A DNA stretch of 49,298 bases from an uncultured Candidatus Peribacteria bacterium. GTDB lineage: Bacteria; Patescibacteriota; Gracilibacteria; BD1-5; UBA6164. The stretch lies in the NCBI GenBank assembly GCA_964586815.1, contig CAZPIB010000002.1:1-49298 (forward strand). The letters are read 5' to 3'. The notes beneath the pieces were generated by a model that was not told the DNA's origin, did not search any database, and worked only from the letters and a program-made list of their open reading frames with translations. A program made the position numbers and the translations under genes. This document shows positions 1 to 49,298 of this stretch, piece after piece; the first letter of the stretch is position 1; the number at the start of each line of letters is the position of its first letter.

Positions 1-55
1 TTCAGTTTTAGGAGCTTCAGTTTTAGGAGCTTCAGTTTTAGGAGCTTCAGTTTTA
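1..55. repeat. Terminal redundancy: bases 1-55 are identical to 49244-49298. The block is 3.7 copies of the 15-bp unit ttcagttttaggagc.
   Basis: Direct comparison of the first and last lines of the window. The ORF crossing the junction is in frame only if an overlap of 10+15k nt is removed. Confidence 0.9.
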
Positions 56-72
56 TTTAATGTTTTTGTCAT
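1..72 (-). CDS. 5' part of an ORF of about 137 aa that continues across the window junction into 48905-49298. It has an N-terminal (APKTE)n repeat and unknown function.
   Basis: ATG is the complement of 70-72. The reading MTKTLNKTE(APKTE)n continues in frame at the other end of the window. Confidence 0.6.
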   Translation of the reverse strand, partial: MTKTLNKTEAPKTEAPKTEAPKTE

Positions 73-162
73 AATAGTAATTATATTAATAATAAAAATA
101 CAAAGTTAATTATTTGTGGTATAGTTACTATAATGTTCTTTTAAAAAAAAGCAAAAGATTTT

Positions 163-3100
163 TTACCAAACTTTTCTTAGTCTTTTTTTCTTTTTAGGTT
201 CAAAAACTTTATTCCAATCTTCTAAATTATCTTTTTGATCTTCTGTTGTATGATTACTTCTTTTAACTAAGTTTCTTATCTTAGCAATATGTAATCCAAC
301 TAAAAAACTATTTGTAATATCATCTTTAAACATACTTTTCATAGCAAGCCTACCCTTATTATCTTCATCTTCATAGATAAAATTCATTTCTTCTAATAAA
401 TCTTTATTTGAGGTTTTTAAAACCTCAACTATTCATTCTTCCATAAAATCTACTGCATTTCATATTAATCTAGTTTTAGAGACTCTCCAATCTATCCCTT
501 TTGATGATTCTGTATCTCAAGAAGTATATCAGATTTTAATGAGTGTTTTATCTTTAAAAGTATGCTTAAATGCTTCATTGAATCATTCTCATACTCATCT
601 AATATCAACTCAATATACTATCTTTGGAAAACTTCAGAATTGTTTAATGATTGTTTTTTGATAATATGAGATTTGTGTACTCCATTGTTTTTTATGAGAT
701 TTAGGTACAAATCCAGATAAAATAACATATATCTTTCAGTTAATAATATATAGAACTGTAAAAGCACTTCTATCTGCTCAAGGTCTAGCTGGATCAAAAG
801 TAATAATAAAATATCACTCTTCTCAAATAATTGGATATGAACTGGTTTGTAATGGCTTAAAAAGAATATCATCTCAACTGTTCCAGCTACAAAACCATTG
901 CCTTTGATTTTTGGCTTTTGCTTGATTTTTCATAACTCTTTCTCTAAGCTTTGGATTAACTAGAGGATTTTGAGTAATATCAATTTGATAATAACTAACA
1001 TCTGGTAGTGATTCTGATTTAACTGCAATTTTAATTCATGCTAATTCAATTCCTTTTTTTGCCTCCATTATTAAATCATAATAATATCATTTAGCAGTTT
1101 TTCAAGGAGTTCAAATTAAAATCATTCTTCAATTAGTTGTAGCAAGAGTTGGTTCAAGTACTTCTTCAAAAACATAATCACTAATTAATTGAGCCTCATC
1201 AATAATGATATTACTTAAAGTTAATCATAGTACATTTTCAGCATCTCAATCTAGTGTTCTAAAATAGATCTTAGTTCAACTTTTTGTATTTAAAATATAT
1301 CATTCAGATTTAAAGTGAGTAAATATCCCATCATCAAATTTATTAATAAACTTCAACATATAATTTCTAATTACATCTGTGGTTTTTTTAATATATCATC
1401 CAACTAAAGTATCTTCATTTGGTAGAAAACTTAATTCAACTGCTTTTTCAGCTATTGTCAAAGAATTATGAGTCAATATTCAGTTAGAAAAATATAATTC
1501 ATCATCTGATTTTACCGCTATAGTTACAACTTTTTCTTCTCAAATATATTCTATGTTTTTTATTTTAACCCAAAGATAATCTAACCAACTTTCTAAATTA
1601 TCTCAAATAAAGTGTTTTGATTTTATTTTTCTTCTTTGAAAAGGATAAGATGGCTTCTTATTGGTTCTACTAGTATTGGTTATATTATTGACTGCATCTA
1701 ATGGTATTAATGAAACTTTTCAATTAGTTTGAATGTTGTTATCTGTTAATCTTGCTTTAAATTTTGTATAATTTAATTTTGTAGTTATATCTATTTTTGA
1801 ATCTAATAAAATAAGACTCTCTTTGTTAGTTATATATAAATAATAAGCAAATTCTCTATGTTTTTTAAAATTACTTCTTATTTTTTTAGTTCTTATAGCA
1901 CAGATAACCCCTAACTTTAATAATAATAATTGAAGTTGAATAATTAATTGTTTCGAAGTAGAACAATATTCAATACTAGCTGCTCTATTATTAGATATAG
2001 ATAAATATGCATCAGTGTTAAATATTCATTCAAGAAAAGCCCATTGATTAATATTACTTGTTAAAAATACTTTATTGTCTATAAATTTTTCATAAGAATA
2101 TAAATCCACTCAATTAAAATTAGTCCTTTGTTTATATTTTTCAATATTATAAATATTTGATGTTCATTTTAAATTTGAAGTAATTTTATATTCAGAGATA
2201 ATATCTTTTAGTCTATTATGGTTTCAAGAAATTTGATTAGTTTTCCTGCATCAATCTCAAATAAAGTATCAAAGAAGCATAAAATCTTCTCTTGTGTGTG
2301 TTTCTTTTTTATTATCATTGTATCAAAAAGAGTAATTAAATGCTGTAGGAATGAATAAGTTAGCTTCTCTTTGTAGCCTTTCTTGTATTTTTCTTTCAGG
2401 AAGTGTTCTATTCTTATTTAATCTTCTGTTTTCTTTTAATATATCTAATTCTTTATTTAAATTAATGAATTTTTCAAATAAAGATTTAGCATTTATATAA
2501 TGTTCTTTATTATTTAATTTATTTGCATCCCATTTTTCTCAATTAAAATTATGAGAAAGTGGTATTCTATGTTCTTCAGATATTGTATGTTCCATTCAAT
2601 TTTCTAAAGTAATCTTATAACTTGGTTTTTTTGAATAAGAAAGTTGTGTGATTTCAGTAAATTTATAATTACTTCACAATATTTTATCTCATACCTTTAC
2701 GTGTTGGGCTTCTTTATATCAATAATCTTGACAGAATACCTTTTGGTTGTATAGTACACTTTTACCTAGTTGTCTACTTCAATCAAGTAAGATTATTGGA
2801 GAATCATCCTGTAGTAGAGTATCTTGCCATTTTATATAGACTTGTTTAGTTCCCCATTTTGGCACAACATAAGGGGAGTATCAAGTTATCTTTCTTATTG
2901 CATCTCTTGAAATTGTTAAAACTTTCTTTTTCTTTTTATTTTTATTTTTATTTTGTTCTGGTTTTTGAATTGTAGGTCTTTCAGTCTGAATAAAAGTATT
3001 ATTTCTTCAGTCTTTTTTAACTAACCATAATTTAAGTTCATCAATTTTATAATAATATCATTTAAAGAAATAGAAATTATTGTATTGTGATCTTGTTTTT

Positions 3101-3342
3101 TCAGAAATGATTTTATTATAGTATTCATGTTTAGAATATAATTCTATCATTTTTATGGTATGCTCTTGTTGTTTTGTTATATCAGTAAAAATCATAGCAT
3201 TATCAATATTCTCAAAATGAAATTCAAAAGGCAAAGTAAAATACCTAAGATTTTTCCATTTCTTAGGTTCTGCTTCTGGTATTAAATCCTCCTGAGCTGG
3301 ATTGAATGTTCAATTTTTAACTAGCCAATATTTATCTATCAT
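163..3342 (-). CDS. terL: Terminase large subunit, 1059 aa as a precursor, interrupted by an intein.
   Basis: The frame was hand-scanned and contains no TAA or TAG. Walker A is ILLDGSRQLGK/S, Walker B is NIIIDEAQ and the coupling motif is MILIGTPG, with both Gly of LIGTPG encoded by TGA. The ATG overlaps the stop of the upstream ORF. Confidence 0.85.
1465..2760 (-). mobile_element. Intein of 432 aa with a LAGLIDADG homing-endonuclease domain, inserted in the TerL P-loop.
   Basis: The N-terminus is SVLYNQKV directly after GSRQLGK. Block B is ISEEHRI. The LAGLIDADG motifs are LLGYFIGDGC and FLEGIFNTDAYLS. The C-terminus is FSNGILTHN followed by Ser. The spliced extein restores GSRQLGKSLTIAEKAV. 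Confidence 0.8.
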
Positions 3343-4229: not shown

Positions 4230-4315
4230 TTATAATTATCAATTAAATCTATAAGGTCATAGTATGTATTTTTAACTAAAAAGCAAATCTTTTGTTAACT
4301 TTTTGTTCTTTTTTT

Positions 4316-4536
4316 GTGTAATTTATATAGTTTATAATCAAATGTCATTATGTTTGGTGAAAATGATGGATTTGTGTGGTTTGTATAATTTATATAATTT
4401 GTATTCAAATGTCATTGTGTTTGGTGAAAATGATGGATTTGTGTAATTTATATAGTTTATAATCAAATGTCATTGTGTTTGATTATAATTTGTATTCAAA
4501 TGTCATTATGTTTGGTGAAAATGATGGATTTGTGTG
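4316..4536. repeat. Nested tandem repeat array. The core caaatgtcattRtgtttg occurs four times and ggtgaaaatgatggatttgtgt three times.
   Basis: Cores start at 4339, 4406, 4464 and 4497. The intervening segments are themselves repeated. Confidence 0.85.
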
Positions 4537-4537
4537 A

Positions 4538-4556
4538 GGGGGACTTACGACCCCCC
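4538..4556. other. GC-only hairpin (GGGGG-acttacga-CCCCCC) followed by ACCA.
   Basis: Read directly from the sequence. It is conspicuous in an AT-rich non-coding region, immediately after the repeat array. Confidence 0.6.
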
Positions 4557-4898
4557 ACCATAAAACAAAAAAGTGCTATACCCTTTGTGTTTATGTTTAT
4601 ATATAAATATAATCATTATAATTAAAAAGCCTTTAAAATATTAAGTTTTAAACTTTAATATTGTGGGGTAGTTTATTTTTTAAAAAGATGTGGGGTATGA
4701 AGCTGTATTTTCTATTAAAATTAAAGAGTATATAAAACTGTATATATTCATATATACTTAAGTATATAAAAACTGTATATAAAAGCGCAAAAAATGTACA
4801 AAAAGTTAACAAAAGCCAAAAAGCACAAAAAGCACAAAAAGTTAACAAAATGATAACAAAAAGCGCAAAAAGTTAACAAAATGATAACAAAAAGGCTT

Positions 4899-4948
4899 AA
4901 AAAAAAAATAAAAAAAAATAAAAAAAAATGAAAAAAAATGGAAAAAAA
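4899..4948. repeat. Five phased A-tracts (A7-A10) spaced about 10-11 bp apart, predicted to bend the DNA intrinsically.
   Basis: The sequence is aaaaaaaaaataaaaaaaaataaaaaaaaatgaaaaaaaatggaaaaaaac, directly upstream of a -35 box. Confidence 0.7.
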
Positions 4949-4949
4949 C

Positions 4950-4978
4950 TTGACAAAATACCTTAAAAACATTATAAA
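4950..4978 (+). promoter_or_regulatory. Sigma-70-like promoter, TTGACA-17 nt-TATAAA.
   Basis: TTGACA lies at 4950-4955 and TATAAA at 4973-4978. A-tracts lie upstream, and the operator-like inverted repeat starts about 17 nt downstream. Confidence 0.5.
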
Positions 4979-5480
4979 ATAAAAATTGTTATCATTTTGT
5001 TAACTTTTTGTACATTTTGCTTATAGTTATTTCAAAAGTTCTATGAATAGATCAACATTTTCAATTTTGACCCTATATATATTTATTTTTTTTCCTATAT
5101 AACCAAAAAAACACCCCTTCACAAATTAAACTATATCAATAAAAAAATAATTACATTCTATTCATAGTAGTTTCAAAATAACTATGAGCAAAAAGCGCAA
5201 AAAGTTAACAAAAAGTTAACAAAAAAAAAATAATAACATAAAAAAAATAAATGTAAAGAAAAAAAAAAAAAATGTTATTTTTTTGTTAACACTGTTTGTC
5301 TCTATTTAAAGGCATCTTGAGCCTTTTTGTACATTTTTTGTACTTTTTGTTAACTTTTTGTACATTTTGCTTTTTTATCTTTTTTTATAAAAATATATAC
5401 TTTCAGTAATAATAATAAATAAAAAAGTCTAAAAATCTTTTGACTTTTGTTTGCAAAAGAATATACTTAAGATAGTTAAT

Positions 5481-5557
5481 AAGATACATTTAATTAAAAT
5501 AAACATTTAAAAAACCTTCTTGGTTAGCTTAATGATTTTATTTAACTGATATATTTT
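5481..5557. repeat. Copy 1 of a ~75-bp intergenic element, upstream of the first early gene.
   Basis: aagatacatttaattaaaataaacatttaa...ttggtta.cttaatgattttattt..tgatatatt matches 6245-6320 at roughly 90 percent identity by eye. Confidence 0.8.
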
Positions 5558-5615
5558 TAAAACTATTAATAAACAACATTTAAATAAATAATAATAAATA
5601 ATAATAATAAATATT

Positions 5616-13477: not shown

Positions 13478-14827
13478 ATGCATTATAATAAGAAAGGAAC
13501 ATTCTTAACTATTTGAGAATTTAAGGAAATCCAAAAATCTTTTGAATTAAAAAATGAAAAGAAGACTCAAATGAAAAGAATGTGAATGTGGGGTCGGCAT
13601 AAGCTACCAGATAAAATTAAACACTGGGAATTAACAAAAGATAAAAAATTTGTGTCTATCCCATCTGGATTAAGGTGATTCTGGAAATTTGAGGATAAGT
13701 ATCCTTTACCAACAAAAGTAAATTTTCCAGAGTTAGTTAATCCTTACAAAGGAAATGAATTAGATTTAAAACAAGATAAATTTATAAAACAATTTCTTCT
13801 CAAAGAGATTTGACTTTGACACTGCTCCACTGGAACTTGAAAAACTTTTATAGCAGGGAAAGTTATAAAGTTAATATCAGTAAGAACTCTAATTGTTGTT
13901 TCTTGAATTGAATTAATGAATCAAATGAAAAAAGATTTGAAAGAAATTTTCTGAAAAACATTTAAAACATTATCTTGAACAAAGACAAAACAAAAATGAG
14001 CTGATGATTCTATCATTATAGCTAACATAGATACTCTTGTAAAACAAGATGATGATTTCTTTGAGATGTTTGACTTAGTTATTCTTGATGAAGTTGATAC
14101 TTATTTTTCAGCAGATAGAAGAAGAGAAATGGTTTGGAAAAAATTAAATATGAAATATATTTATGGACTAACCTGAACAATTAAAGTAAATTATATTCCA
14201 GATAAAATATTTGATATTTACTTTTGACCAAAAACTGAATTGATTGAAAAACATTTTCAACCAAAAATAAGAAAAGTTATGACTGAATTTATATATCAAT
14301 TAGATGATATGAAAAAATTTCATGAATTAAAGGAAGCATTATATACAGCAGAAGATAGGAATAATTTAATTGTTAGAACTGTAAGAAATACTCTGGGAGA
14401 AAATAAATGAATTGTTTTTTCTGAATATATAAATCATGCAAAACTTTTAAAGGAAAAGATCCAAGCTCAATGAATAAAATGTTTTATGTTAATTTGAGAA
14501 GTAAAAGATACTGAAAGGCAAGAAATCAAGAAAAAACTTATATCTTATGATTGACCCTGTGTATTAATTGGCTCTGTTAAGATTATCTGAAGAGGATTCA
14601 ATATTCCAGAATTAAGTGTTTGATATTTAACAACTTGTGAAAAATTTGAAAGCAATATTATTCAATATGTAGGAAGAATAATAAGACTATTCCCTGGAAA
14701 AGAAGAATGTAGATGGTTTGATTTCATAGACCCTTGATGTAAAACATTACTTAATCAAAGTAAAAGTAGAACAAGAAATTACCATAAAACTTTTCCAGAA
14801 TCAAAAATTGAATTTTACACTCCCTAA
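13478..14827 (+). CDS. Superfamily-2 DEAD/DEAH-type DNA helicase (449 aa).
   Basis: Walker A is HCSTGTGKTFIAG (the Gly of GKT is TGA), motif II is LVILDEVD, motif III is GLTGTI and motif VI is QYVGRIIRL. Confidence 0.8.
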
Positions 14828-14894: not shown

Positions 14895-15749
14895 ATGAAA
14901 GTATTAAGTTTATTTGATTGAATGAGTTGATGAATGTTAGCATTTAAAAAAGCAAATATAGAAGTAGATAGATATTTTGCAAGTGAAGTTAATAAATATG
15001 CTATTCAAATTAGTCAAAAGAATTTTCCAGAGATATCTCACATATGAGATATAACAAAAGTAATATTTACAGAAAAAATTGATATACTTATTTGATGAAG
15101 TCCTTGTCAAGGATTTAGCTTTGCTTGAAAACAATTAAATTTTGAAGACCCAAGAAGTAAATTATTCTTTGAATATGTTAGACTATTAAAAGAAGTTAAG
15201 CCTAAATATTTTTTACTTGAAAATGTAAAAATGAAAAAGGAATATCAAGATATAATTACAGAAAATTTATTTTGAGTTGAACCTATTGAAATAAATTCTA
15301 ATTTAGTTTCAGCACAAAACAGAAAAAGATTATACTGGTTTTGAAAACTAAAAGAAGATTGAACTTATAAAAAAATAGAAGTAATTCAACCACAAGATAA
15401 ATGATTTTTATTAAAAGATATTTTAGAAAAAGAAGTTGATGAAAAATATTATTTGTCTGAAAAAAATCTAAAACATTTACAAAGAGATTTTGGGAGTAAA
15501 TGAAAACAACAAAACATTAATAATAAAACCTGTACATTAACAGCTTCTATGTGAACTTGATGATGAAATGTTCCTTATTTTACAACTTTACATAAAAGAT
15601 TAAGAAAATTAACACCAATAGAATGTGAAAGATTACAAACTGTTCCAGATAATTATACAAAATGAGTTTCAAATACTCAAAGATATAAAATGCTTTGAAA
15701 TGGTTGGACTATTGATGTAATAGCTTATTTATTTAATCAACTAAATTAA
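14895..15749 (+). CDS. DNA (cytosine-5) methyltransferase (284 aa).
   Basis: Motif I is LSLFDGMSGGMLAF (TGA at 14919, 14928 and 14931). Motif IV is [14 protein letters not shown] (TGA TGA at 15093-15098). Further motifs are [29 protein letters not shown] and [10 protein letters not shown]. Confidence 0.9.
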
Positions 15750-15967: not shown

Positions 15968-16606
15968 ATGTTAAAGTTAGAAGAAGTTTGAAATCAAATG
16001 AATAAAGAAGAATGGCTAGAAGATTATAAAAAAGAACAACTCTGAAAAAAAATGGATAAACTTGCTGATACATATTATAAAACTCCTTGATTTATTAAAA
16101 GTCAAATACTATCAATGATGTCAGATTCTGATATTGCAATTATTATTTGAGATAAAAGAAAAGAATGGGGAGGATTAGAATTTGAAAAAAAAGCTAAATT
16201 GAAATGACTAAGATGAGATGATAGAAAAATCTTAGAATTGATATATTTAGATGAGCAAAAAGAAATAAATAAACTTACTAAAGAATTGCAATATATATTA
16301 AAAAGTAGACAAGGATGAAATCAATGATGATTTAATTCTGAAGACTTACAAAGAGCTAAAGACAATATCCCTATTTCTGAAGTGATCCAGATTGTAGCTT
16401 GAGTGAAGATTGTCAATTCTTATAGACTTATTAGATGCCCTTTACATAAAGACAATACAGCTAGCTTTAAAATATATCACAAAACTAACAGCTTCTTTTG
16501 TCAGTGATGTAAAGCCGGTGGTAGATCTATAGATTTTATAAAACATTTTTATAATATATCTACATGAGAAGCAATTAGAAAACTTTTAACACTTTATAAA
16601 AAATAA
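15968..16606 (+). CDS. CHC2 (DnaG-type) zinc-finger protein (212 aa), a primase-associated DNA-binding module.
   Basis: CPLHKDNTASFKIYHKTNSFFCQGCKAGGRSIDF matches the C-P-x-H...C-x-G-C pattern. The Gly in CQGC is TGA. Confidence 0.7.
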
Positions 16607-17028: not shown

Positions 17029-17781
17029 ATGAAAGATAAAATAATATTTTTAGATACAGAAACAACTTGAATTGAAGAACCTTGATTAATTCAATTATGA
17101 TATATAATTTGTGATTTGAATTTCAATGAAATAAAAAGAGAAAATCTTTTCTTCAAAACTGATAAAAAAATAGAATTTGGAGCAATGGCAATTCATCATA
17201 TTACTGAAGAAATATTAGAATATCAAATTGAAAAACATCCATGAACAGAAGAAGAAAAAAGAAGGCTTGTTATTCAAGACTTTGAAAATGCTTACCTAAT
17301 AGCACATAATTCTCCTTTTGATAAGAATGTATTAGATATTAATAATCTTGCAACTCCAGAGAGTTCAGAGTGGATAGACACATACAATATTGCTTATGGA
17401 GTTTTTACAGATAAAGAAATGAAGCATAGTCTACAATATCTTAGATATTATTTAGGTTGTACTTTTTCTGAAACTATTGATGCTCATGATGCATTATCTG
17501 ATGTTATTGTTTTGAAAGCAGTCTTTATGAAGTTGAGGTGGGCAATTTTTGAGCAAAATGGTTCAGAAATAGACACAGCAGAAATTTTAGACACAATGAT
17601 TGAGGATACTAAAAGATGAATAATCTTAAGGACTTGGGCTTTCTGAAAATACAAATGAAGAACTTTTGCTGAAACATTTAAAATGGATAGATGATATTTT
17701 ACTTGGATGTATAATGCTAAGATAGAAGACAGAAATACTAATGATGCAATATTTAATACTTTAAAATTTTACTTAAAATAA
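17029..17781 (+). CDS. DEDDh 3'-5' exonuclease (DnaQ/epsilon-like), 250 aa.
   Basis: ExoI is FLDTETTG (the Gly is TGA), ExoII is AHNSPFDKNVL and ExoIII is HDALSDV. The C-terminus has a KYKGRTFAE...YFTWM module. Confidence 0.85.
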
Positions 17782-18802: not shown

Positions 18803-21800
18803 ATGAATACTATATCAAAATTTACCATTAATCCTCTATCGAAAAAATATTCTTCTGATGAAATGGAATTCATTGATGAATTAAATCTATCAAAAGAAAT
18901 ATGATATGAATTTCCTCATTATTATTCTGATAATACAATTACTGGATATAGAGCAGCAATAATTAAGTGTGATGAAGTGGATGTTGATTACATAGAGCAA
19001 ATATATAAATTAAAACCAAATAAGATTTATTGCCATAAAAATGTAAGGCATTTAGTTTTCTATTTTAAAAATAGTCTTAATAAATATGACTATAATAGAA
19101 TTACAAAAGCATTAGGTTTCTTATATAAATGAAAAGCTATTAATTATCATTTTTATCCATTAAATGGAGTAATTGAAGAGTTTTCTTCAGGAGAACTAAA
19201 CAAGTCATTATCTGATACTTGTACAAAACTATATTTTTTCCAACAACAAAGTATAAAATATCAAAAACTTTTTACAATTAGTGAATTTGATAAATATCTT
19301 GAAGTTGAGAAACTTAAGATAAAAGAAGTTGTAATAGCTTTATATAAAAAAGAGCCAGCAGTAATTCCAGATATTTTAAAATTAATTGATATTAGAAATA
19401 ATATTCATAAAGAATATTGAAATGCTTTTTCTTTTGTTCATCATTATTATTCTAGTATTGAAAAAGCTAAACAATTTTTTAAAAATGATTTTAAGATTTG
19501 ATTTGAAGAAACCAACTCTTTTGATTTTACTAAAGCAAAAGAATGAATAGTAATAAAAGAAGGAGAAAACTTATTTTTAAGTGAATTTTGATATTTTTCA
19601 CTTGATCCATCTGGAAATAATAAAAGATTAACTGATTTTTATATAAAAGTTCATGCAAAAATAGTATGAAAAGACTGAAAACATTTTTTTGTTGTTACTT
19701 TAGTTAACCAATGAGAATGAACTGAAACCAAGAAAATGATATGGGAAAATAAAACTTCTGGAACTACATTTTCTGATTTTATCCAATCTTATTGACCTTA
19801 TCATTATTATGGATGACCAGCTTTTATTAAAGAATTACATAGGCAAATATCTTCAACTAAGCAAATTTCAACAATTCAACAAGTAGTCTGATATTGACAT
19901 CATAAATCTGAATGAATAATTATTTTTAAAAATTGAATATGGGATATAAAAGAAAGATTATTCACAAAAAAGAAAGATAATGATGATGATTATTATTATA
20001 ATTATGATAGTAAATGATATTGGGTTACAGATAAGGGTTGAAATTCATTAACAGAAGTTCTATCTACTTGAGTGCCTAATTTGAATATTGAAGGAGTTGT
20101 TGAGATGGGTGATATTCTTGATTTTATGTCAGAATTATATGCTGATAATTCTTGAAGTTACTTAGTATTTTTAGCATTTGGGATGATGGGGTATCTTACA
20201 TATTGAGATTCAACAAAACCTTTCCCACTAGTATTTACTAGATGAGTAACTTGATGTGTAGATTCAGAAACTGAATACTTAACACCAACTTGATGGAAAT
20301 ATATTAAAGATTATCAAGAATGAGATATAATTTGAGAATTTAATAAAGATACTTGAAAATGTATTTTTAACAAACCATTAGATTATATTAAAGAAAAAGA
20401 TAATAGATTAGCATACAGAATTAAAACTAAAAATATAGATATGCTTCTAACAGAAGAGCATAGATTATTATCACAATCACAAAGAGATGTTTATTCTACT
20501 ACTCAATTATGAGAAGTTGTTTCTGATTTAGAATTACATAAGCACCATAAAACAAATAAATATAATATTCCTGTTGTTTTTGATATTGAAGACAAAATAG
20601 GAATAGATTTATCTGATGTAGAATTACAATTAATGGTGGCAGTTATAGCTAATTGAAGTTTTCCTAAAAAAAATGTTTGATGAAGGTGATGAGAGTATAT
20701 ATCCTATATTAAGATAAAAAAAGAAAATAAAAAAAAGAGACTAAGGGAAATATTGAATAAAACTGATATTTTTGTAGAAGAAAAGAATAATCCCGAATGA
20801 TATACTACTTTCAAATTTGATGCACCAAGAAAAGATAAGGTGTTTTCTAAATATTATTGGGGTGCTAGTAAATCTCAATTAAAAATAATTGCTGAGGAAG
20901 TAAGTTATTGGGATTGAAGTGTAGATAGAAAAGAAAGTGCTGACTTTGTTCAATATGCTTTACTTATAACTAATCAAAGTAATGATATAGAGATTATATC
21001 AACTCAACAAAAAAAGAAATCTACCAGAATAGAATATAAAGATATTGTTAGAGAACAACTTACTGATTGAAATAAATATTGTTTTACAACTAATACAAGC
21101 TATTGGGTAGCTAGAAGAAAATGAAAAATTTTTATAACGTGAAATAGTTGAAAATCTACTTTTAATGAATTACTTCAAAGAGTTTGGGGAATTAAAAAGG
21201 CTGGTACAGATTTTGAAAACTCTACACTTTTTACGATGACAGTAACATTATCTTATTTGATAAAGTTCCCATATTTTATTGCAGAATATAGAGAATCAGC
21301 AAATCAAAGATTACAGAAAGTAGGAACTTTAAGAAGTGTATTTGATAAAATTTCTCAAACTAAAGGTAGAGCAGACCAGTCTGTTGTGAAATATGATTAT
21401 TTTGCTACACCAGTATTAGATTGAGAAGAAATGATAACTGATCCTGCATTAAGGACAAGAAGCTTACAATTACAATTATTAAAAAAACATAAAATTCAAT
21501 GAAACTTCTCAAAAATTTTAAGAGAATGATGATCTATTTTAGATAAATTAATGTTTACTTATTTATCTAAAAGTACTTGAGATAAATACCAAGACTATTT
21601 AGATGAATGATATGATTTTTTTAAAAAACAAACTAGTCAAAATAGAATAGCTCAAAATGTTGCAAGTATTTATGCTTGATGTATGGCATTTAATTCAGAA
21701 AAAGATAATGAAGATCAATATAAAATGGTATTATCTGAAATAATACTTTTCCAAGAAGAGGATGTTTCAGAAAATTCTAATCAAATGCAAATCATTAAAT

Positions 21801-22105
21801 TAATTTCTAAATTTATGGAGTCTTCTTACAATTGAATATATCCATTAAAAGACAGGGTTGTTATTAGTTGGAATGCTTTTGAGGAATATGTGAGTAGACA
21901 TAGACTAAAAACAACGTTAAAAATAGACACATATAAAGAACATTTAATGATAAGGGATTTTAATATAGAATTTATTGAGGTTTGAATTGAGTGATGATTA
22001 GTTGAGTGAATTATTATTCCTTATAAATTAATCCCCAAAAATTTATTAGTCCACACAGAAACATATAAATTTTATAAGGATTGGAAAAATTTATCTTCTA
22101 ATTAA
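18803..22105 (+). CDS. Large replication ATPase, primase/helicase-like with a P-loop (D5/P4-like). The precursor is 1100 aa and is interrupted by an intein.
   Basis: The whole frame was hand-scanned and contains no TAA or TAG. The P-loop is split as FTRGVTG / SGKSTFNELL, and splicing restores GVTGSGKST. Confidence 0.7.
20255..21145 (+). mobile_element. Intein of 297 aa with a LAGLIDADG-like endonuclease region, inserted in the Walker A loop of the replication ATPase.
   Basis: The N-terminus is CVDSETEYLTPTGW and block B is LLTEEHRLL. The endonuclease-like motifs are LMVAVIANGSF and IIAEEVSYWDGSV. The C-terminus is YWVARRKGKIFITGN followed by Ser. The penultimate residue is Gly (TGA) rather than the usual His. 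Confidence 0.7.
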
Positions 22106-31163: not shown

Positions 31164-31191
31164 AATAAAAAAAGCCCTATTTATAAGGCTT
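31164..31191 (-). terminator. Weak intrinsic terminator after the methyltransferase gene.
   Basis: On the minus strand AAGCC-10 nt-GGCTT is followed by T8. The stem is only 5 bp. Confidence 0.4.
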
Positions 31192-33373
31192 ATTTAAGTA
31201 AATTATCAAATATAGCTTTTACTACAGGTACACTTACTGCATTACCTGCTTGTTTATATGCTTGTGAATTACTCATAAATTCAGTAGACCAGTTATCAGG
31301 GAAGCCCTGTAATCTTGCACACTCTACAGGTGTTAATTTTCTTATTATAAAATCGTCTAAAACTACCCCGTCTACTCCTGCTACTGTTAAAGTTCCACTT
31401 ATTCACTCTTTAATTCTGCTTCTTTTTGTTATACTTTTTGGATTATCTAAAATAACACCGTCCCCTATTTTAGCCTCAGCATATCATTTTTTAGTCCCAT
31501 TGTTTAATTTTATAAATTCATATATCTTTGGTCTATTTCAACCATCTCCAGCTGTTAGAGTTGGTACTAATCAATCCATACCAATAAAAATATTATCCTG
31601 ACTAAAATTACAAAAACTAGGATCCTTTAAATTTACTTGTAGTTTTATTTGTTTGGAATCTCTTGGAGTTATTTTATTATAAATTCTTTTTAAACTATCA
31701 AAACTTAATTTTTTATATTGTTCTTCGGTCATAAAAAATTTACTATCTACTTCTTTTTCTAAAATATCTTTTAAGAAAATATTTAATTCTTTACCTTCTG
31801 GGAAGTTGAAATAATCTAAAGTTCCCACACCTAATTTTCAAACTATAAAAACCCTTTGTCTATTTTGTGGCAATCAAAAATCTTTTGTATTTAAAACTTG
31901 AAATTTTACATCATAACCAGCATCTTTTATTCTATCTAAAATACTTTCAAAAAATCATTTGAATTTTTTATTTAAAAGCCCTTTTACATTTTCAAAAATA
32001 AAATATTGTGGTTGTTTTGTTTCTAAAATCTGTAATAAATATTCAACTAGTATAGTTCTTCAACCTTCCTTTAGGTTTTGTTTTCACGCTACACTAACAT
32101 CCTGACAATTATGTACAATGCAATTGTTTGCTGTGTAAGAATTATCATTTTCAACTTCTATATTATAAACAGTATTTGTTTCTTCTAAATATTCTTTTGA
32201 TTTAAAAGGTAGCCACATATATCAATTTATATTAATTCAATTGTCTTGTGTTTTTTTTTCGAACTTAATATCTAATGAATAAGTATCCCTCTGGTTAACT
32301 TCTCTTCATTCAATAATTGTTTTAGGTTTTCTTTTTGTATAATATACAGATGTAGGAGTTCAATATACTTTATGAACTAATTGTTGTATTCATAATATAA
32401 GTTTTTTTGATACAGATGAAACACGGTAATATCACTTATCCTTATAATAGTGTCAATCTCAGTCTATATATCATATTAATAATTGCTCTAAGTATTCTTT
32501 ATTTAATCACATTATTGATGTTGGTATAAATTTTCAATAACTGTATTTTCAAAATTGTTCCATATACTCCACAAATTCTTTATTTGCAATATAATATTTT
32601 AAAACAGTTCTGTCATCTACTTTTGAATAATTAAATAATCACTCTAGTAATTCTTCTACTTCTTTGTATTGATTTTTATTACAACACAATACTACTCTGT
32701 GTGATTTACGCTGTATATTTGGTCATCTACTATAACTACCCCACCATCCATCTGCTAGAAGCCTTCAAACTAATTTGTAAAATTTTAAACTTTTATCAGA
32801 ACATTCTGTAAGATCATCTTGAATGTTAAATCATATAAAATCTCATTTATTTAAATCTTCTACATTTTTCCACTTCGGTTCACTAAAAACTCTTTCATAT
32901 TTTCTAATTGAATTATTCCACTTTTTAGTCATTTCCCTTACATAATATGGATGCTCATTTGTTACAAAAGTTTCTAATGCTCCCTGTATTTTAACATTAT
33001 AAATTCATTTTTTATTTGGAGTTACAAAATGCCTTAATACTTTTTGATATTTATTTGTGTGTGTTAATACATAATCTCAAACTTCCATATTTTTAATATC
33101 TTTATATCACTTTTGTGTTAATACCATTGTTCATTCTTTAAAACAAGGAAATCCACCAGTTAATAAATCAAAATCAGGTAAATTTTCTATATCTATTTTT
33201 GTTATATCTCATAAATCAGGACTAGTTGCAAAATGTTCTTTATAAACTATTTTAGCAAATTTATCTATTTCGCTAAAGCCTATACATTCAATATTTTCTT
33301 TACCTATACTTTTCTCTAAGGCTAAATGAAAACCACCTATACCAGAAAAGGTATCTAAAAATTTCATAATCAT
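31190..33373 (-). CDS. DNA (cytosine-5) methyltransferase. The precursor is 727 aa and is interrupted by an intein at the catalytic Cys.
   Basis: The frame was hand-scanned and is open. Motif I is FLDTFSGIGGFHLAL. Motif IV is split as LLTGGFP / CQDVSVAGKQ. Further motifs are ENVKGL, QNRQRVFIVG, RKLTPVECARLQGFPDNW and AGNAVSVPV. Confidence 0.85.
32108..33145 (-). mobile_element. Intein of 346 aa with a LAGLIDADG homing endonuclease, inserted between Pro and the catalytic Cys of methyltransferase motif IV.
   Basis: The N-terminus is CFKEGTMVLT and block B is VTNEHPYYV. The LAGLIDADG motifs are LVGRLLADGWWG and LLIGYIDGDGHY. The C-terminus is TANNCIVHN followed by Cys. Confidence 0.8.
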
Positions 33374-33477
33374 TTTATAAAAAGTTAAATTTGAATTATA
33401 CAATTGTTTTTAATCTGATACTAATCATTTTAACTGGTTACAATCTGTAACCGTTTGATTTGACTTTTTTTTATAAA

Positions 33478-34021: not shown

Positions 34022-34522
34022 TTATATTTTTCTATTAACAATTATTTCTATACAAGCCACAGCTTCATCAGCTGTACCAGTTCTAATTGTTTTTATTAAA
34101 TTAGTTGGATTATTAATAACTGATTGACCAGCTATTTTTCTATATTTACCTGTTTGTTTATAGGGTTTTTGATTACATTGAAAATGAGGTAAATCTCTAC
34201 CCCATAAATCATACCCCCAATCTATTCAATAAGAGTTAGCTATTTTTCATATCTCTTTCCAGAGTTTTAAATTATTAGGATATAGAGTTTTTCATTTAAA
34301 AGCTATATCAAAAGCTAATCCCTTAGTATGCATTGAATTTCTAGTCCAGGTTATTATAGAACCTGGTCTAGTTCTTCATTGAGTGAAGAGAAAGTTCTGT
34401 CTTGCTTGACTTCTATAAGCTTCTGTAATGAAAATTCTATCTCAAGTTTCTTTTAAAAAATCAATAACTTTAAGCCTAAAATTAGACTCTAAATTATTGA
34501 TATTTCTGTCTGCTTTTTTCAT
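34022..34522 (-). CDS. Peptidase M15 (VanY / L-Ala-D-Glu endopeptidase type) cell-wall hydrolase (166 aa).
   Basis: The motifs are ITEAYRSQARQ, SMHTKGLAFD, YGIDWGYDLWG and DLPHF. Confidence 0.75.
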
Positions 34523-34784: not shown

Positions 34785-35189
34785 TTAATCTTTTATTATA
34801 AATCATAATACTTTTAAGAAAACAGGTACCTGTTTTTTAGTTAATTGACTAGTTCCTCATTTACCATAAAATTTACAATTCATTAAATCAGCTTCTGTTA
34901 AATTAGCTCCTATTAAATCAGCTCCTCTTAAATTAGCTCCTCTTAAATTAACTCCTCTTAAATTAGCTTCTGTTAAATCAACTCCTGTTAAACCAGCTTC
35001 TATTAAAACTTCTTTAATAGTAAAATATTTAATAGAAGTAAAAATTATATTTCAAAAAATAGATTTTATTTCAAATTTCTTTTCTTCTTCTTTATTTTGT
35101 AGTTTAAATTTTGTATGAAGTTTAATTATTTCTTCAACTTCATTTTCACTAAGTTCTATTTTTTTATTCTTTAATTTGTATTTCATCAT
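34785..35189 (-). CDS. Pentapeptide-repeat protein (134 aa).
   Basis: AGLTGVDLTEANLRGVNLRGANLRGADLIGANLTEADLMNC gives about eight A(D/N)LXX repeats. Confidence 0.75.
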
Positions 35190-38417: not shown

Positions 38418-40253
38418 TTAAGAGATATTAATTAAACAACTGAAATCTGAACCAGCTACTGCACTTCAAACTTGTGTTATTTTTAATGTAAATACATCTG
38501 TATTTACTAAAGCTGTTGCTATATTTAGATTTGCTATATGCCTGCCATTTATAGCAATTCATCACCCATTAATTATACTTATATCTTTATTTAGACTAAT
38601 TCAGTTTTTATAGCATTTAACTATAAAATTAGCACCAGTATTTGCAACTTGTAAGGCTATTTTTATATTTCATACTGTTTTATTTCAGTCAGCTATATAC
38701 TCAAAGAATTCAGTTCAAGCTATTTGTGGTCAAGCTATTTTAACTGTTTCTATTCATCAGCCTCCTCATCAGGCATTATCATCTACATATTTTTTAGTAG
38801 CAGGATGATAATTTGTTGTTGGAATAAAACTTGTTGTATTATTTTTTTCTAATACATTAGTCTTATCTGCTTTAGTGTTATCTGATGGAGGTGTATAATT
38901 TCACTCTAACATAGTTCCAGCAGTAGTTCAAAACTGTAATTTATTTTTAATAAAAGTATCTAATGTATTATTTATCTCATTAAAATCAGATTGTACATTA
39001 GCTTTTGCATTATTTTCAATGGTTCATAATTTAGTTTTCTCTATATTTGTAAATTTTTCTCAATCAAGATTGATTATTGGATTCGCTGGATCTAAATTAT
39101 TAATAGTTATGTTACTTCATCAGACTATTGATGATATGGTTCAACTTCAATTTGTTACTGTGAAAGTTGAAGTAGTTCCATTTTGATATGTAATTGTGTA
39201 AGTATCTATAAGTCAAACAGTTCAAGTTTTTGTTGTACTAACAATTCAACTTCAATTTGTTATTGTATATGTTGTGTTTGTTCAATCTGTGAAGTTAATT
39301 TGATAAGTATCTATAAGTCAAGTAGTATTTATCTTTACAATATTAATAATTCAACTTCAATTTGTTATTGTATATGTTGTGTTTGTTCAATCTGTGAAAT
39401 TAATCTGATAAGTATCTATAAGTCAAGTAGTATTTATTTTTACAATATTAGCAATTCAATTTCAATTTGTTACTGTGAAAGTTGAAGTAGTTCCATTTTG
39501 ATATGTAATTGTGTAAGTATCTACAAGTCAAGCAGTTCAAGTTTTTACTATATTGGAAATTCAATTTCAATTTGTTATTGTGAAAATTGAAGTAGTTCCA
39601 TCTGTATAAGTGATAGTATAAGTATCAACAATTCAAGTAGTTCAAGTTTTTGTTATGCTTTCAATAAAATTTCAAATAAATAATCAGTGATGTCTATACT
39701 CTATTTTAGAAATAAGGGAACTTACAACAGTAACCTCAGCAGTAATTATTCCTTTTTCAGTAGTAGCTGTATTCTCATTAGTTGTGGATTTTATTGTATT
39801 TGTATTAAGTTTATAATATATATAATTAATTCAGTTAGATAATATTAAATCTTGATCCATTACTTCTATTGTTTCTATTCATTTAGCTATTGGTCATCAT
39901 AAAACTCTTATCTCTACATTTCATAATTGTTCAATAAAAAATGTTGTACTATTTAATTTAGATAAATAGTTGAAAACTAAAGAAGTATCATTGATTTGTA
40001 CTTTTTCTGTACTAAGATGTGATTTAGGCTCAATCCTATCATTTCATCTTACATAAATAGAGTTTCAAACAACTTTATTATAAAACATTTTTTCTCTATT
40101 TAAAATGTTGTCTGGATCTACAATAATAAATCATTTTTGATGTTGTGGTACTTGAGTTACAATTAAAATAATATCTCAACTATCTGCTAAGTTATTTGTT
40201 AATTCTGTTTGGTAAAAATCTTCTACAAGAATATTTTTAGTTGTTTTTGACAT
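38418..40253 (-). CDS. Tail fibre protein (611 aa) with five 35-aa tandem domains.
   Basis: The frame was hand-scanned and is open. It contains the repeat G-I-x-N-I-V-K-T-G-T-x-G-L-(V/I)-D-T-Y-x-I-x-(Y/F)-x-(D/N)-G-T-x-(S/T)-x-(F/Y)-T-(V/I)-T-N-G, the fibre motif HPATKKYVDDN, and a GGGGGG linker encoded tga tga gga ggc tga tga. Confidence 0.75.
39130..39655. repeat. A 105-bp coding tandem repeat of five units inside the tail fibre gene.
   Basis: The units at about 39246-39350 and 39351-39455 are nearly identical. The flanking units are more diverged. Confidence 0.8.
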
Positions 40254-42480: not shown

Positions 42481-43077
42481 TTACCAAATTTTATTTTTAC
42501 TTTTATTTAATCTTTTAATTTTGGTTGGTTGTGGATTAGAACTTCTTGTAGCTATACTTTTTATCATTCAATCAAAAATTGCTTTTTTATTATTTGCTTT
42601 GTCATATACTTTTATATCCATAAAACCAAAATAAGTAGCTTTAATTATAATTATATCATAAAAATGCTCTGGGATTTCAATCAAATCAGTTAAATCAGTA
42701 ATTGGTGCTGGTAATCCTCTGTAAAACAGTTCATATTCTCAAGGTTCTTCACATATTAAAATATTTTCCCATATTCATATTGCTTTTGTTTTATCATTAA
42801 GTCTATGATAATCTTGAAAATCATAAAAGCCTACTTCAACTCATCATTTTTTTACAAAGAAAGTTTCTATCTGATAAGGTATTTCATATTTTACTGTTCA
42901 TTCTATGATTGTTATTTTTTTATTATATTGATTATATCAAAAATTTCTTGCTATTGTTATAGCTCTAACTGCTGAATTAATATATCTGATAATGTCATTA
43001 CTTCAATGTGCTTCTGTTGAAAAAAATGATCCAAGTTCTTTTTGAATTACTGGGGCTATTGTTGATACTGCTATCAT
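42481..43077 (-). CDS. Head-tail adaptor/connector-like protein (198 aa).
   Basis: The call rests only on its position after the capsid genes and on its size. Confidence 0.35.
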
Positions 43078-43191
43078 AATATATTGTTTTATATAATAAA
43101 TTATATTTATATAATATGAATAAATTGATTTTAATCAATAAAAAAAATACCATATTGAAATATTTCTATTTCTCATGTATTTATATTTTTA

Positions 43192-43963: not shown

Positions 43964-43968
43964 AAAAA

Positions 43969-44246: not shown

Positions 44247-45512
44247 CTAAACAACACGGATAGCAGCAAACGCATTAGAATTTGAGTTTTCCATAGTTAA
44301 ATACGTAACCAATGAAGCCTCTGAATTTGCAAAAGTTGAAGTTGCGTCATTCATCACTAATCTAGTTTTACCATTCATACCAGCATTTTTAATTGGGTTT
44401 TTTCAAATAGGATAAATTATTTTACAAAAACTTGGGTCAATTACAAACATTATTCCATCATATCCAGATTGAGAATCTAGTAATGGGTGTTCAATAAAGA
44501 TGAATTCTCCTTGATTAATTCTTAGAGATTCAAACCTTAAATCAACATCTTTTATGTCTGTAACATTTAATCTATTTTCAAATAGAGTAGCAATTGCAGA
44601 TTTTACACCAGTTCCACAAAGAACAATTTTTTTATAAGAACCATCTTTTGTGTATTTTAGTGGGTTGGCTAATGCTTCTTCTAGTGTAGTTCTTGATAGA
44701 GTAGAAGAAATATCATTCGTCCAACCTCTTTTAGTATTTTCAATTACTCATTCCATAGTATAATATGATTTACCAGTAATTGGATCAGTTGATGCAGTTT
44801 TTTGTCCAAACAATACAGCTTTTTCAATTTCAAGTGCATGTTGTATAGTTTTTTCAGCTATAATTGCTTCTCATCCTCCTATTTTATTAGTTAGATTATC
44901 AAAGTCATCTTGACTAAAAGTAGTTAAGAATTTTTGGTAGTAATTGCTTCTATTTTGATTTACTACATAGAAAGAATCAAGGCTAGCTTGTCCTTTAGTA
45001 GAAGCAGAACCTAAAACTTGCAATTCATCTCCAGAAGTAATTGCAGCAGCGGCAACTGTACCAACTCCTCTTTGTATTACTATATCAGTTGCATTAGTTA
45101 TAGCAGATATTCTCATTTGTTCATTAGTAACTATATTTCTGAAAGTTAATCCAGCATATAGTCCAGAAGTTGAAACTAAAGTTAATGTAGTTATTGCAGA
45201 GGTAATAGTTGCATTAGCTTTGAACATATCATTAGCCTCATCTCTTTCTTTCCATTTATACTCTGGAAAATTATTAGATAAATCTTCGTTAAAACCTAAA
45301 TTTTTATAATTACCTCCATTTAATCCTCTACCTAAATTAATAAGTGTGTGCATAAAAGGAGTTCTACCTTTTGCAATTGAAATTACTTCCAATTCTTGAT
45401 TATTATATACTTCAAAAGAATCTTGAGAAGTATTTTTGTCTGTGTTTGCTCTTGCTGGTACTCCAGTAGTAGCTATTACCCCAGTAGGGTAACCATTTGC
45501 ATTTAAAGCCAT
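44247..45512 (-). CDS. Major capsid protein, HK97-fold type (421 aa).
   Basis: The track ORF 44871-45512 extends through TGA codons to a TAG at 44247, and the frame was hand-scanned. It lies directly after an acidic scaffold-like gene, and the local GC is noticeably higher. Confidence 0.75.
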
Positions 45513-46179: not shown

Positions 46180-46212
46180 TAAAATAACTTCAAGTACAAT
46201 CTCATAATATAA

Positions 46213-46464: not shown

Positions 46465-46608
46465 AATTGGATTCTGCTTTGTTTTAAGAATTTCTTCAGT
46501 CAGAATTATATTTAACTTTTTTAAATTCCATAAATATATTATTATTCAAATTAATAATAATATTATTAATGCTAATATTCAGTAAATCATCATATATAAA
46601 ATTAAAAA

Positions 46609-46878: not shown

Positions 46879-46897
46879 AATTGTATTATGTTAAAAA

Positions 46898-48814
46898 TTA
46901 AATATTTGGATTTCATTGCCCTTTATTTCCTAAATCCATATTAGGAGTGGCTGCTTGTCATGCTTCATTACCTATCTCTTCAGCTTCAGATTGTTCTGGA
47001 GCATTTACTCAAGGTAATCAAGTTTGAGAAATTTCTGCTGCAATTTCTTCATGATTTGCTGGTTTTACTCATTCTCATGGTTCAGTTATAAACTTACTAG
47101 GGTGATAACCACTCTTTTTAATAATTTCTTTTCACATATCATCAGATTTGAAAAATCCAGATGGTCAAAGTGTATTATATAATTCAATAAGTTTTTTTGC
47201 TTCTATAGCTTGATTTGTTCCAAACATTCATTCAGTTTCCAATGATAAATTTACACCTCAAAGTAATTTAGTTCATTGGATAGCTTCCCAAGTTTGTTCT
47301 CATTCTTCATCAAGAATATAAATTAATTGCTCCTTTGTCCAATATTTTTTAACTAATTTCAACCACATTTGAGCTACTATTGAAATAGCATCTAAGAAAT
47401 TACTCACATAAGGAGATAATCTTCTTTGAGAAGATTGAGATACTGCTAATGCTCAAGTTGCAGTTCTTTCTCTGGCTGAAATTCATTGATCATATTCAGA
47501 AATTCAAGTAATTTGAGTGGCTATTTGTTGAATTAATGTCATAACCCCAAAATCATTTAATCCTCATTTATCTAATCTATAAACTGCATTCCCATTTAGG
47601 TTATCTTCAGTATATAATATTCCTCAAGGAGTTCAGTCTTCAAGTTCATCATCATTTAACATAAGATTTTTCTGAACAACCATTGTTGGATTTGCAATAC
47701 TTCTTGCAGAATCAAAGTAATTATTTATGAAAGAATTTCAAACTTCTTCTAATCATTTTAACATATAAGGTATTCATTCTCAAAATCTAGCTTGAGTTTG
47801 ATTCGCTGCTTTTACAACATATGGAATAAATCAATAAGGATTTGGTCAAATATAAACTGGATAATTGTTTGCTATAATTATTAGTCTTCCTTGATACCAA
47901 CTTGCTTTAAATTCAATAAGTCATTCAATTACATCTGGATCTTCATCAATTGCAGTTCCAGAAGTATTGTCTACTCCTAAAACAGTTGGAGATTTAAAAA
48001 AATCTTTTTCTCTGAAATCTTTGTTTACTTCTTGACGAATTTGATGAATTATATTTCAATAATCTTGAAAATCTGAAGAATTATCATTTAAAGGAAGAAG
48101 TGTTAAGAGTTTTTTATCTTTGAAAGGACTTCTATTTTTCTTACTTTTTATTGTGTTCCCGAAAACTTCAATAAATTCTCCATATGAAATAACTCATCTT
48201 TCAGTTATATATCTTAATGGTCAAGTATAAGGATCTGGAAATATATTAAATACTGGAATATTGACAGCATAAGGATGATTTTTTTCTTCAACCTCAACTT
48301 CTTCGGTAATTATTGATCCATCTACTATTGATGTATATGTTTCAGTTTTATTGGTCTTTTTATATCATACTCTCATACAGATTTCTCAAATAACTAATCA
48401 ATTAGCCATTGTATCCTTTAGTTGCTTATGAAATCAGCTAACATCTGAAATATAATTTAAAGTATTTAAGATATTCTCTTTATTTTCTGCTCCTTTTTTA
48501 TTTATAGCAGTTGCCATAAATATTAGAGGTTTTTCATTTAAACTTGCAACCAAAATATCAACAAAACTTCTAATAAGTCCTATTGTTATATTTTGCTTCC
48601 AACTATTACTTCATAATTGTACTTTTCTATCATAAGTAGAAAGATGATAAGCTTTTAGTGCTGCTCTCCATATAAAAAATTCTGAATTTCTAATATGTTT
48701 ATGAGAAGTTTGAAAATCTTTTTCTGCTTGATTTACTAATTTTGAATCTTCATCTGAAATACTTATTTCTTTTGAATTTCATTTCAGATCCTTATATGAA
48801 TATTTTTTTGGCAT
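46898..48814 (-). CDS. Portal protein (638 aa).
   Basis: The frame was hand-scanned and is open. The call rests on size, position after the terminase, and portal-like core sequence (ISARERTATGALAVSQSSQRRLSPY). Confidence 0.7.
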
Positions 48815-48881
48815 AAAATTATTTTTTTAAGAATAAATATTTAACTTTATATTATATAATAACTACAAAAAGGCAAATAAA

Positions 48882-48903
48882 AAACTAGAAATTAATCTAG
48901 TTT
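48882..48903 (-). terminator. Hairpin with a T-run right after the junction-spanning ORF.
   Basis: The hairpin is aaactaga-aattaa-tctagttt. On the minus strand it is followed by tttatttgcc. Confidence 0.5.
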
Positions 48904-48904
48904 G

Positions 48905-49298
48905 TTAAATCTTTGAAATAACTTCATTTATTAATCCTTGTAATTTAATCTTGAAAGGATTACTATCTGGAATTTCTTTTTTAGCCTCTTCAAGTAAAGT
49001 TAAAAGTTTAGATTTTTTAGGAGTTTCTTTTTTTACTATATTTTTATCTGGCTCTGGAGAAAATTTTAATGCCTCATCAGTATCAATAAATTCTAAATAA
49101 CCTTTTTTCATTTTTGGATTAATAATAGTTCCATCAATTCTTTTAACTCTCACAGAAAAAGTTTCTTTAATTATTCCTCATTTTTCATTTGTAATTTTTT
49201 TCCCAATTTCATCTCAATTAATATCTAAAATGATAAAATCTTTTTCAGTTTTAGGAGCTTCAGTTTTAGGAGCTTCAGTTTTAGGAGCTTCAGTTTTA
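48905..49298 (-). CDS. 3' part of the junction-spanning ORF (see 1-72).
   Basis: The track ORF 48905-49153 extends upstream through two TGA into the APKTE repeat. Confidence 0.6.
49244..49298. repeat. Terminal redundancy copy, identical to 1-55.
   Basis: Direct comparison of the two ends. Confidence 0.9.

Follow-up and report, generated by a model that had tools for sequence, protein, structure and literature searches.

Reassignment of UGA from stop to glycine (genetic code 25) was described in SR1 bacteria (Campbell et al. 2013) and in Gracilibacteria/BD1-5 (Rinke et al. 2013; Hanke et al. 2014; all cited in PMC10746230 and in the gTranslate preprint). According to background cited in the same two sources, Absconditabacterales and BD1-5 ('Gracilibacteria') possess tRNA-Gly(UCA) and are without release factor 2 (RF2). 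Phages of these bacteria, predicted by means of CRISPR (clustered regularly interspaced short palindromic repeats) spacers, were reported by Liu, Jaffe, Chen, Bor and Banfield (mBio 2023, PMC10746230); code 25 was clear in 44 of 50 predicted Absconditabacteria phages longer than 20 kb and in 4 of 38 Gracilibacteria phages above the same length, and all prophages of both groups were dense with in-frame TGA. The subject of the present analysis is contig CAZPIB010000002.1, a stretch of 49,298 nt with a G+C content (GC) of 24.8%, hereafter called the window, which carries the genes of a tailed phage filled with in-frame TGA codons. The preferred reading, to which a probability of about 95% is assigned, is that of a complete tailed-phage genome with a virion module similar to that of phage SU10, in which all modules are written in code 25 and the decoding of UGA depends on the host.

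Since code-25 phages were reported in 2023, phages of this kind are already known, and the statement in an earlier reading of the window made from the letters alone (the sequence-only reading), that few such viruses have been described, is somewhat outdated, as the survey cited above contains dozens of them. Like those phages, the window is dense with in-frame TGA, offers almost nothing that can be called with translation table 11 and regains its coding regions under table 25; for both, recoding machinery of their own would be unneeded in a host that already reads UGA as glycine. The hosts in PMC10746230 were predicted from CRISPR spacers and code 25 was assigned from coding density and host identity, whereas the host of the present phage is inferred and the choice between glycine and tryptophan was made by residue and codon alignment. 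With the window, the few dozen known code-25 phages gain a complete SU10-like podovirus that is rich in inteins. Its value lies in the complete genome of such a phage, in the correct reading of a clade that has been mistranslated, in a lineage that stands at a code boundary, and in the avoidance of TGA by the capsid gene.

With cellular code 25 the phage shares glycine as the meaning of UGA, UGG as the sole tryptophan codon, UAA and UAG as stops, and a low GC. It differs in that it is viral and lacks what defines the cellular trait, a tRNA-Gly(UCA) gene and the loss of RF2, and in the use of TGA as the majority glycine codon. Recoded phages are also known from gut bacteria that use the standard code, with UGA read as tryptophan (code 4) or UAG as glutamine (code 15) (Borges et al., bioRxiv 10.1101/2021.08.26.457843; Peters et al. 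2022, PMC9523058). Suppressor tRNAs are frequent in these phages and release factors occur in some of them; the in-frame recoded stops of their structural and lysis genes are believed to postpone the late proteins (discussion of PMC10746230). The present phage resembles them in having a reassigned stop codon and in being mistranslated by routine pipelines; unlike them, it has no decoding genes that could be found, TGA occurs in all of its modules, and the amino acid is glycine. The presence of TGA in every module also means that there is no switch of code between early and late genes.

The virion proteins relate the window to another phage, SU10, an Escherichia podovirus and the source of the names of the Pfam families SU10_MCP, SU10_portal and SU10_adaptor, all three of which are matched by its capsid, portal and adaptor proteins. 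Related loci show the gene order found in the window. Differences from SU10 concern the genetic code, the GC content and the replication module, and genes of the present phage bear inteins.

Meaning of the TGA codon

Under table 11, open reading frames (ORFs) of at least 100 amino acids (aa) span 6.1% of the window and the longest has 213 codons, while with TGA as a sense codon they span 79.4% and the longest reaches 1658 codons. At a threshold of 60 aa the coverage is 19% with TGA as stop and 92% with TGA as sense. Reading TAG as sense gave 9.8% coverage, and reading TAA as sense gave numerous short frames with a maximum of only 280 codons, as results from the AT-rich sequence. The greedy set of non-overlapping ORFs, with TGA read as sense, contains 63 members that are closely packed on both strands, account for 90% of the window and hold approximately 630 in-frame TGA codons, distributed over the replication and virion modules and over both strands. 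The terminal codons are TAA in 56 ORFs and TAG in 7, which is in part a product of the ORF-calling rule. The sequence-only reading had claimed that standard-code ORFs cover little of the window and that sense TGA packs it with genes, and the densities bear this out. It had also proposed to compare coding density under tables 11, 4 and 25; the comparison separates sense from stop, but tables 4 and 25 yield the same ORFs and cannot be told apart by it.

The window holds genes of a tailed phage, namely those for terminase, SU10-type portal, capsid and adaptor, endolysins and tail proteins, in agreement with the sequence-only reading, which had taken it most likely for a virus. The capsid, portal and adaptor proteins exceed the curated cut-offs of the respective SU10 Pfam families, although the similarity is remote (E = 1e-7 to 1e-14). 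Since the two ends overlap by 55 nt and a gene with APKTE repeats crosses the joined ends as an ORF, the sequence represents a complete circular or circularly permuted genome of 49,243 bp.

Whether TGA specifies glycine or tryptophan was approached by composition, profile scores and alignment. Over the 14,914 codons of the ORFs, TGA accounts for 4.22%, the GGN glycine codons for 2.17% and TGG for 0.80%. The sum of TGA and GGN is 6.4%, an ordinary glycine content, and favours glycine; the sum of TGA and TGG, 5%, would be an abnormal tryptophan content accompanied by a deficit of glycine (about 2.2%), and disfavours tryptophan. TGA is then the commonest glycine codon, with 66% of all glycine codons genome-wide, a majority that fits strong A+T pressure at the GC of this genome.

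When the same proteins were translated with glycine, X or tryptophan at TGA and scored against Pfam, the order was glycine above X above tryptophan in all six domains scored. The scores in bits, in this order, were 181.2, 148.2 and 137.1 for DNA_methylase; 59.7, 46.0 and 43.2 for ResIII; 46.0, 37.0 and 31.0 for Helicase_C; 50.0, 43.3 and 39.8 for RNase_T; and 52.4, 51.2 and 48.6 for Zn_ribbon_DnaG. ExoX-like_C scored 31.1 with glycine and 15.7 with X, and was not hit with tryptophan.

Individual columns could be inspected in the C5 cytosine methyltransferase orf25, whose 18 TGA codons were masked as X before alignment with 73 public homologues having no more than 3% tryptophan. The TGA columns contain 73.7% glycine and 0% tryptophan in these homologues; as controls, the three GGN columns contain 81% glycine and the two TGG columns 100% tryptophan. 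In alignment with M.HhaI, TGA codons of orf25 fall on glycines of motifs I and IV. In the superfamily 2 (SF2) helicase orf24, the TGA codons at residues 121, 233, 250, 340 and 371, in Walker A and other motifs, correspond to glycine in distant helicases of normal tryptophan content. The masked exonuclease found no match in PDB and thus yielded no columns to count. Selenocysteine insertion or programmed readthrough at the in-frame TGA codons was set aside in view of 630 sites at glycine positions.

The most direct comparison is the exchange of codons between the window and its relatives. Aligned by codon with three recoded relatives, L001, L004 and L006, whose proteins are 40-76% identical, 454 TGA codons of the window face TGA 215 times, GGN 119 times and TGG never, the remainder being codons for Ala, Ser, Asn, Thr and Asp. 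The 75 TGG codons aligned in this way face TGG (61), Tyr (6) and Phe (5), and neither TGA nor GGN. The portal family was at first unusable for comparison with the standard code, as nearly all of its matches are recoded and stored with tryptophan; this was resolved by two relatives, L008 and L009, that use TGA as a stop. L008 (GCA_040384245.1 JAWVHA010019649.1; GC 55%; portal 48% identical) ends 2 of 6 genes with TGA and L009 (a contig of ERR8156865; GC 42%; portal 39% identical) ends 6 of 8, and in-frame TGA is found in neither. In codon alignments of the terminase, portal, capsid, adaptor and tail genes with these two, 144 TGA codons of the window face GGN in 79 cases, Ala in 14, Asn in 11 and TGG in none; GGN faces GGN in 73 of 118 cases and TGG faces TGG in 16 of 26. 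Among all 598 aligned TGA codons of the window, from both sets of relatives, not one is paired with TGG.

TGA acts in these alignments as a glycine codon that cannot be told apart from GGN, and at the level of sequence comparison the choice between glycine and tryptophan is settled by several independent tests. The sequence-only reading had claimed code 25 throughout, with TGG kept separately for tryptophan, and had proposed profile searches and a tabulation of the residues at TGA columns; composition, Pfam scores, methylase columns and codon exchange all agree with it. It had named coincidence of TGA with conserved tryptophan as evidence to the contrary, which was not encountered at any of the orf25 columns.

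Relatives of the window are stored in public collections in a misleading form. A public protein collection includes this very contig, with sources tagged NCBI and Logan, and pieces of it occur in Logan run SRR9822619. Three stored proteins that were checked (P0001, P0122 and P0183) equal the window's own translations except for tryptophan at each TGA, that is, at 18, 34 and 19 sites, respectively. Among the best 120 matches of the methylase (P0001-P0120), 47 exceed 3% tryptophan; at ten columns that are at least 95% glycine in the other 73, these 47 entries contain tryptophan 266 times and glycine 201 times. Most relatives of the portal and the helicase show the same mixture. Such entries result from code-25 sequences translated with table 4, which in turn follows from the usual coding-density rule that allows no choice other than table 11 or table 4. 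The code-25 phage proteins of an entire clade are thus stored with about 4-8% of residues wrong, exactly at conserved glycines, and this harms homology searches, structure prediction and the building of families.

Decoding of UGA, host and alternative readings

No tRNA was found in the window by ARAGORN, Rfam returned nothing at gathering score or at E≤1, and family scans of 38 larger ORFs (all of at least 126 aa) revealed no release factor and no aminoacyl-tRNA synthetase. The sequence-only reading, which had seen no tRNA or release-factor gene and had proposed tRNA detection as a check, was correct in this respect. Because the in-frame UGA codons extend to the replication genes and the phage has no tRNA, release factor or synthetase of its own, decoding would rely on a code-25 cell. 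In such a cell UGA would be glycine, UGG the sole tryptophan codon, and only UAA and UAG would end genes; the mRNA of the phage would be readable only where a UGA-decoding tRNA-Gly(UCA) is already present and RF2 is absent. Absconditabacterales and BD1-5 ('Gracilibacteria'), of GTDB class JAEDAM01, would be the candidate host lineages. The sole direct hint to the host is L001, a relative of 19 kb that shares synteny with the window, is 70-75% identical to it in nucleotides and has a capsid protein 76% identical. L001 (source sample SRR8859111) lies within a metagenome-assembled genome (MAG) from a river, with contig prefix CALMDL01, labelled 'uncultured Candidatus Gracilibacteria bacterium'.

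Under the standard code, the frames broken by TGA would be pseudogenes, non-coding sequence or an assembly artefact, as might be supposed from the mere 6% coverage that table 11 gives with ORFs of at least 100 aa. This can for practical purposes be dismissed, because at 25% GC chance does not produce frames that run for as many as 1658 codons without TAA or TAG, the proteins obtained with sense TGA match curated families over their full length, and dozens of related contigs from independent samples preserve the same frames with exchange of TGA and GGN. Code 4, as in phages of Mycoplasmatales or in code-4 gut phages, is extremely unlikely, even though it yields the same ORFs and density as table 25, suits the GC of a mollicute host, agrees with the stored tryptophan of the three checked public proteins, and has gained from UGA-to-Trp users newly reported within Patescibacteriota. 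The stored tryptophan is accounted for by gene callers limited to tables 11 and 4, and code 4 would have to accept about 5% tryptophan with about 2.2% glycine, the lowest Pfam score in every domain, methylase columns devoid of tryptophan, and a TGA that never pairs with TGG although TGG readily pairs with itself, Tyr and Phe.

A code-25 phage could also infect a standard-code host and impose the recoding by means of its own suppressor tRNAs or release factors, as the recoded gut phages do. Such phages of standard-code hosts are well documented (PMC10746230), and the SU10-like lineage does include relatives with TGA stops; the explanation is nonetheless very improbable here, given that the genome scans show no tRNA, RNA family, release factor or synthetase and that TGA is dense beyond the virion and lysis genes, in the helicase, zinc-finger protein, exonuclease and methylases, so that essentially no protein would be made in the presence of RF2. 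A few points weigh against the preferred reading of a code-25 phage that depends on its host. It is conceivable that some TGA codons additionally end genes, since in any frame of so AT-rich a genome TAA or TAG soon follows and a gene-ending TGA would go undetected. The MAG of L001 was binned by CONCOCT, and the phage contig may be there through composition or coverage alone. Finally, table 25 is not used by every genome that NCBI labels 'Ca. Gracilibacteria' (gTranslate preprint).

Code boundary and TGA avoidance in the capsid gene

Judged by its gene ends and in-frame codons, the SU10-like lineage spans a genetic-code boundary, with members at GC 42-55% that use TGA as stop; since L008 and L009 end genes with TGA and have none in frame, the lineage would extend over hosts of different codes. 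Across the relatives the TGA share of glycine codons drops with rising GC, from about 75% at 25% GC to 47% at 32% and 34% at 36%, a pattern that mutation pressure would produce. From public assemblies, 61 relatives of the portal and about 70 of the helicase are known; their contigs measure 38-60 kb. A peptide-pattern scan of IMG/VR with the capsid found neither this genome nor a relative, and when the second half of the window was compared with GenBank phages by megablast, the only match was one of 84 nt, at chance level, to a crAss-like phage. Together with the relatives that retain TGA as stop, these sequences make a usable data set on viruses that follow their hosts across a code change, and a gene-by-gene comparison within the lineage could reveal how viruses adjust to hosts that read the code differently.

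Two features of related contigs deserve mention. In L001, at about 1146-1780, the N-terminal part of the terminase lies in another frame, with a switch near ...ITGYS, while the window has an unbroken ORF; either a genuine frameshift or a fault of the assembly could account for this. In L004 (6139-6378) and L005 (1189-1428), a small protein encoded on the related code-25 phage contig matches Acb2_Tad1_hairpin, a sponge fold directed against Thoeris and the cyclic oligonucleotide-based antiphage signalling system (anti-CBASS/anti-Thoeris).

The major capsid gene of a phage is expected to be its most heavily translated gene. In the window this gene contains 3 TGA and 29 GGN codons, so that TGA makes up 3 of 32 glycine codons against 66% genome-wide; the depletion relative to the rest of the genome is significant (Fisher p = 1.7e-11), and the GC at third codon positions (GC3) is ordinary, 0.124. 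The orthologues behave likewise, with 2 of 29 glycine codons being TGA in L001, 1 of 31 in L004 and 4 of 38 in L006, in genomes of 25-36% GC, and in the adjoining genes TGA forms 23-91% of glycine codons, with the exception of a small L006 gene (1 of 11, 9%). The capsid gene carries a codon bias of a general expression type: compared with the rest of the genome, the share within the respective amino acid is 0.76 against 0.49 for ACT, 0.58 against 0.39 for TCT and 1.00 against 0.85 for AAA, and for GGG it is 0.03 against 0.16.

The simplest reading of these values would be translational selection against UGA as a glycine codon in the most heavily expressed gene. That UGA serves less well than the other glycine codons even where code 25 applies throughout is a tentative proposal, given here slightly less than even odds. 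The avoidance of TGA by the capsid gene argues against, or at least qualifies, the idea that dense TGA represents codon optimisation, which was raised in the discussion of PMC10746230.

Genome organisation, inteins and repeats

The features of the window are collected in Table 1. The motifs quoted in the sequence-only reading were each found again exactly as given, coordinates included. The replication block comprises the SF2 helicase, a DnaG-type zinc-finger protein, a DEDDh exonuclease, a large P-loop protein and two C5 methyltransferases, together with a protein that is weakly PDDEXK-like, below the Pfam cut-off. The virion and lysis set also includes an acidic scaffold-like protein, tail proteins of the Laminin_G type and of a repeat-rich type, and a phage lysozyme.

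Table 1. Positions of genes, motifs, inteins and sequence ends in the window, and of capsid orthologues on related contigs.
Feature	Position	Strand	Details
End overlap, copy 1	1..55		Identical to 49244..49298; inside a 15-nt tandem repeat
End overlap, copy 2	49244..49298		
Large terminase orf0	163..3342	-	1059 aa; 46 TGA; Terminase_6N, LAGLIDADG_3, Intein_splicing
LIGTPG	1102-1119		
Terminase LAGLIDADG intein	1465-2760	-	432 aa; after GK of Walker A
LLGYFIGDGC	2248-2277		
SF2 helicase orf24	13478..14827	+	449 aa; 19 TGA, including Walker A GTGKT; ResIII, Helicase_C
GTGKT	13832-13846		
C5 cytosine DNA methyltransferase orf25	14895..15749	+	284 aa; 18 TGA, including glycines of motifs I and IV; Pfam DNA_methylase, HhaI alignment
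FDGMSGG	14913-14933		TTT GAT TGA ATG AGT TGA TGA; TGA at 14919, 14928, 14931
TGA pair of GGSPC	15093-15098		TGA TGA
DnaG-type CHC2 zinc-finger protein orf26	15968..16606	+	Zn_ribbon_DnaG
CQGC	16499-16510		
DEDDh 3'-5' exonuclease orf28	17029..17781	+	RNase_T, ExoX-like_C
DTETTG	17053-17070		Final Gly is TGA
P-loop protein orf32	18803..22105	+	1100 aa; Walker A split GVTG / SGKST
GVTG	20243-20254		
Insertion in orf32	20255-21145	+	297 aa; first residue Cys, last Asn, then Ser
SGKST	21146-21160		
Second C5 methyltransferase orf39	31190..33403	-	737 aa; DNA_methylase in two stretches, Hint_2, Intein_splicing, LAGLIDADG_3
orf39 Hint/LAGLIDADG intein	32108-33145	-	346 aa; in motif IV; +1 residue is the catalytic Cys of PCQ
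Endolysin, M15 peptidase type, orf41	34022..34522	-	PHROGs endolysin E = 1.5e-27; Pfam Peptidase_M15_4
Hexaglycine	38754-38771	-	TGA TGA GGA GGC TGA TGA; in repeat-rich tail-fibre-like orf51 (38418-40253)
Head-tail adaptor orf54	42481..43176	-	SU10_adaptor 31.6 bits (cut-off 27)
Major capsid protein orf57	44247..45512	-	SU10_MCP 54.7 bits (cut-off 24.1)
Portal orf61	46898..48814	-	638 aa; 34 TGA; SU10_portal 46.9 bits (cut-off 30), P22_portal 39.9 bits; PHROGs portal
Capsid orthologue, L001	7964-9284		
Capsid orthologue, L004	13525-14844		
Capsid orthologue, L006	10681-11958		

Two genes are interrupted by insertions that were verified as inteins on sequence grounds. The terminase of L001 represents an intein-free allele, reading GSRQIGK|SLTIAEK across the site, and splicing of the window's terminase in silico raised its Terminase_6N score to 33.1 bits from 19.8 bits unspliced. 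With its intein removed, the second methyltransferase orf39 matches DNA_methylase as one stretch with 263 bits. A candidate for a third intein is the insertion in orf32, whose junction residues (Table 1) resemble those of inteins; orf32 itself is a probable primase/helicase that as a whole matches no family. Neither the insertion nor the spliced orf32 found a match in Pfam, PHROGs or PDB, and for this reason the third intein is put forward as a hypothesis.

Between the divergent gene blocks lies a non-coding region of 1.4 kb (4230-5615), which looks like an origin or a regulatory region. It contains 67-nt repeats at 4313-4537, A-tracts phased by 10 nt at 4900-4958, 11-nt phased ACAAAAAGTTA-type repeats at 4781-4928 and 5180-5281 and, inverted, at 5323-5376, and a 66-nt inverted repeat (4986-5051 / 5157-5222). 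The small ORFs called within it, 4332-4499 and 4721-4972, are probably spurious.

Repeats are found within genes as well. A 105-nt unit, encoding 35 aa, is present in five tandem copies in the tail-fibre-like orf51 (39140-39651, minus strand), and an SSRP(S/T) unit occurs seven times in tandem in orf38 (30783-30889, minus strand). Pentapeptide repeats are encoded by orf43 (34883-35007, minus strand), with a match to Pfam Pentapeptide at E = 5.7e-15.

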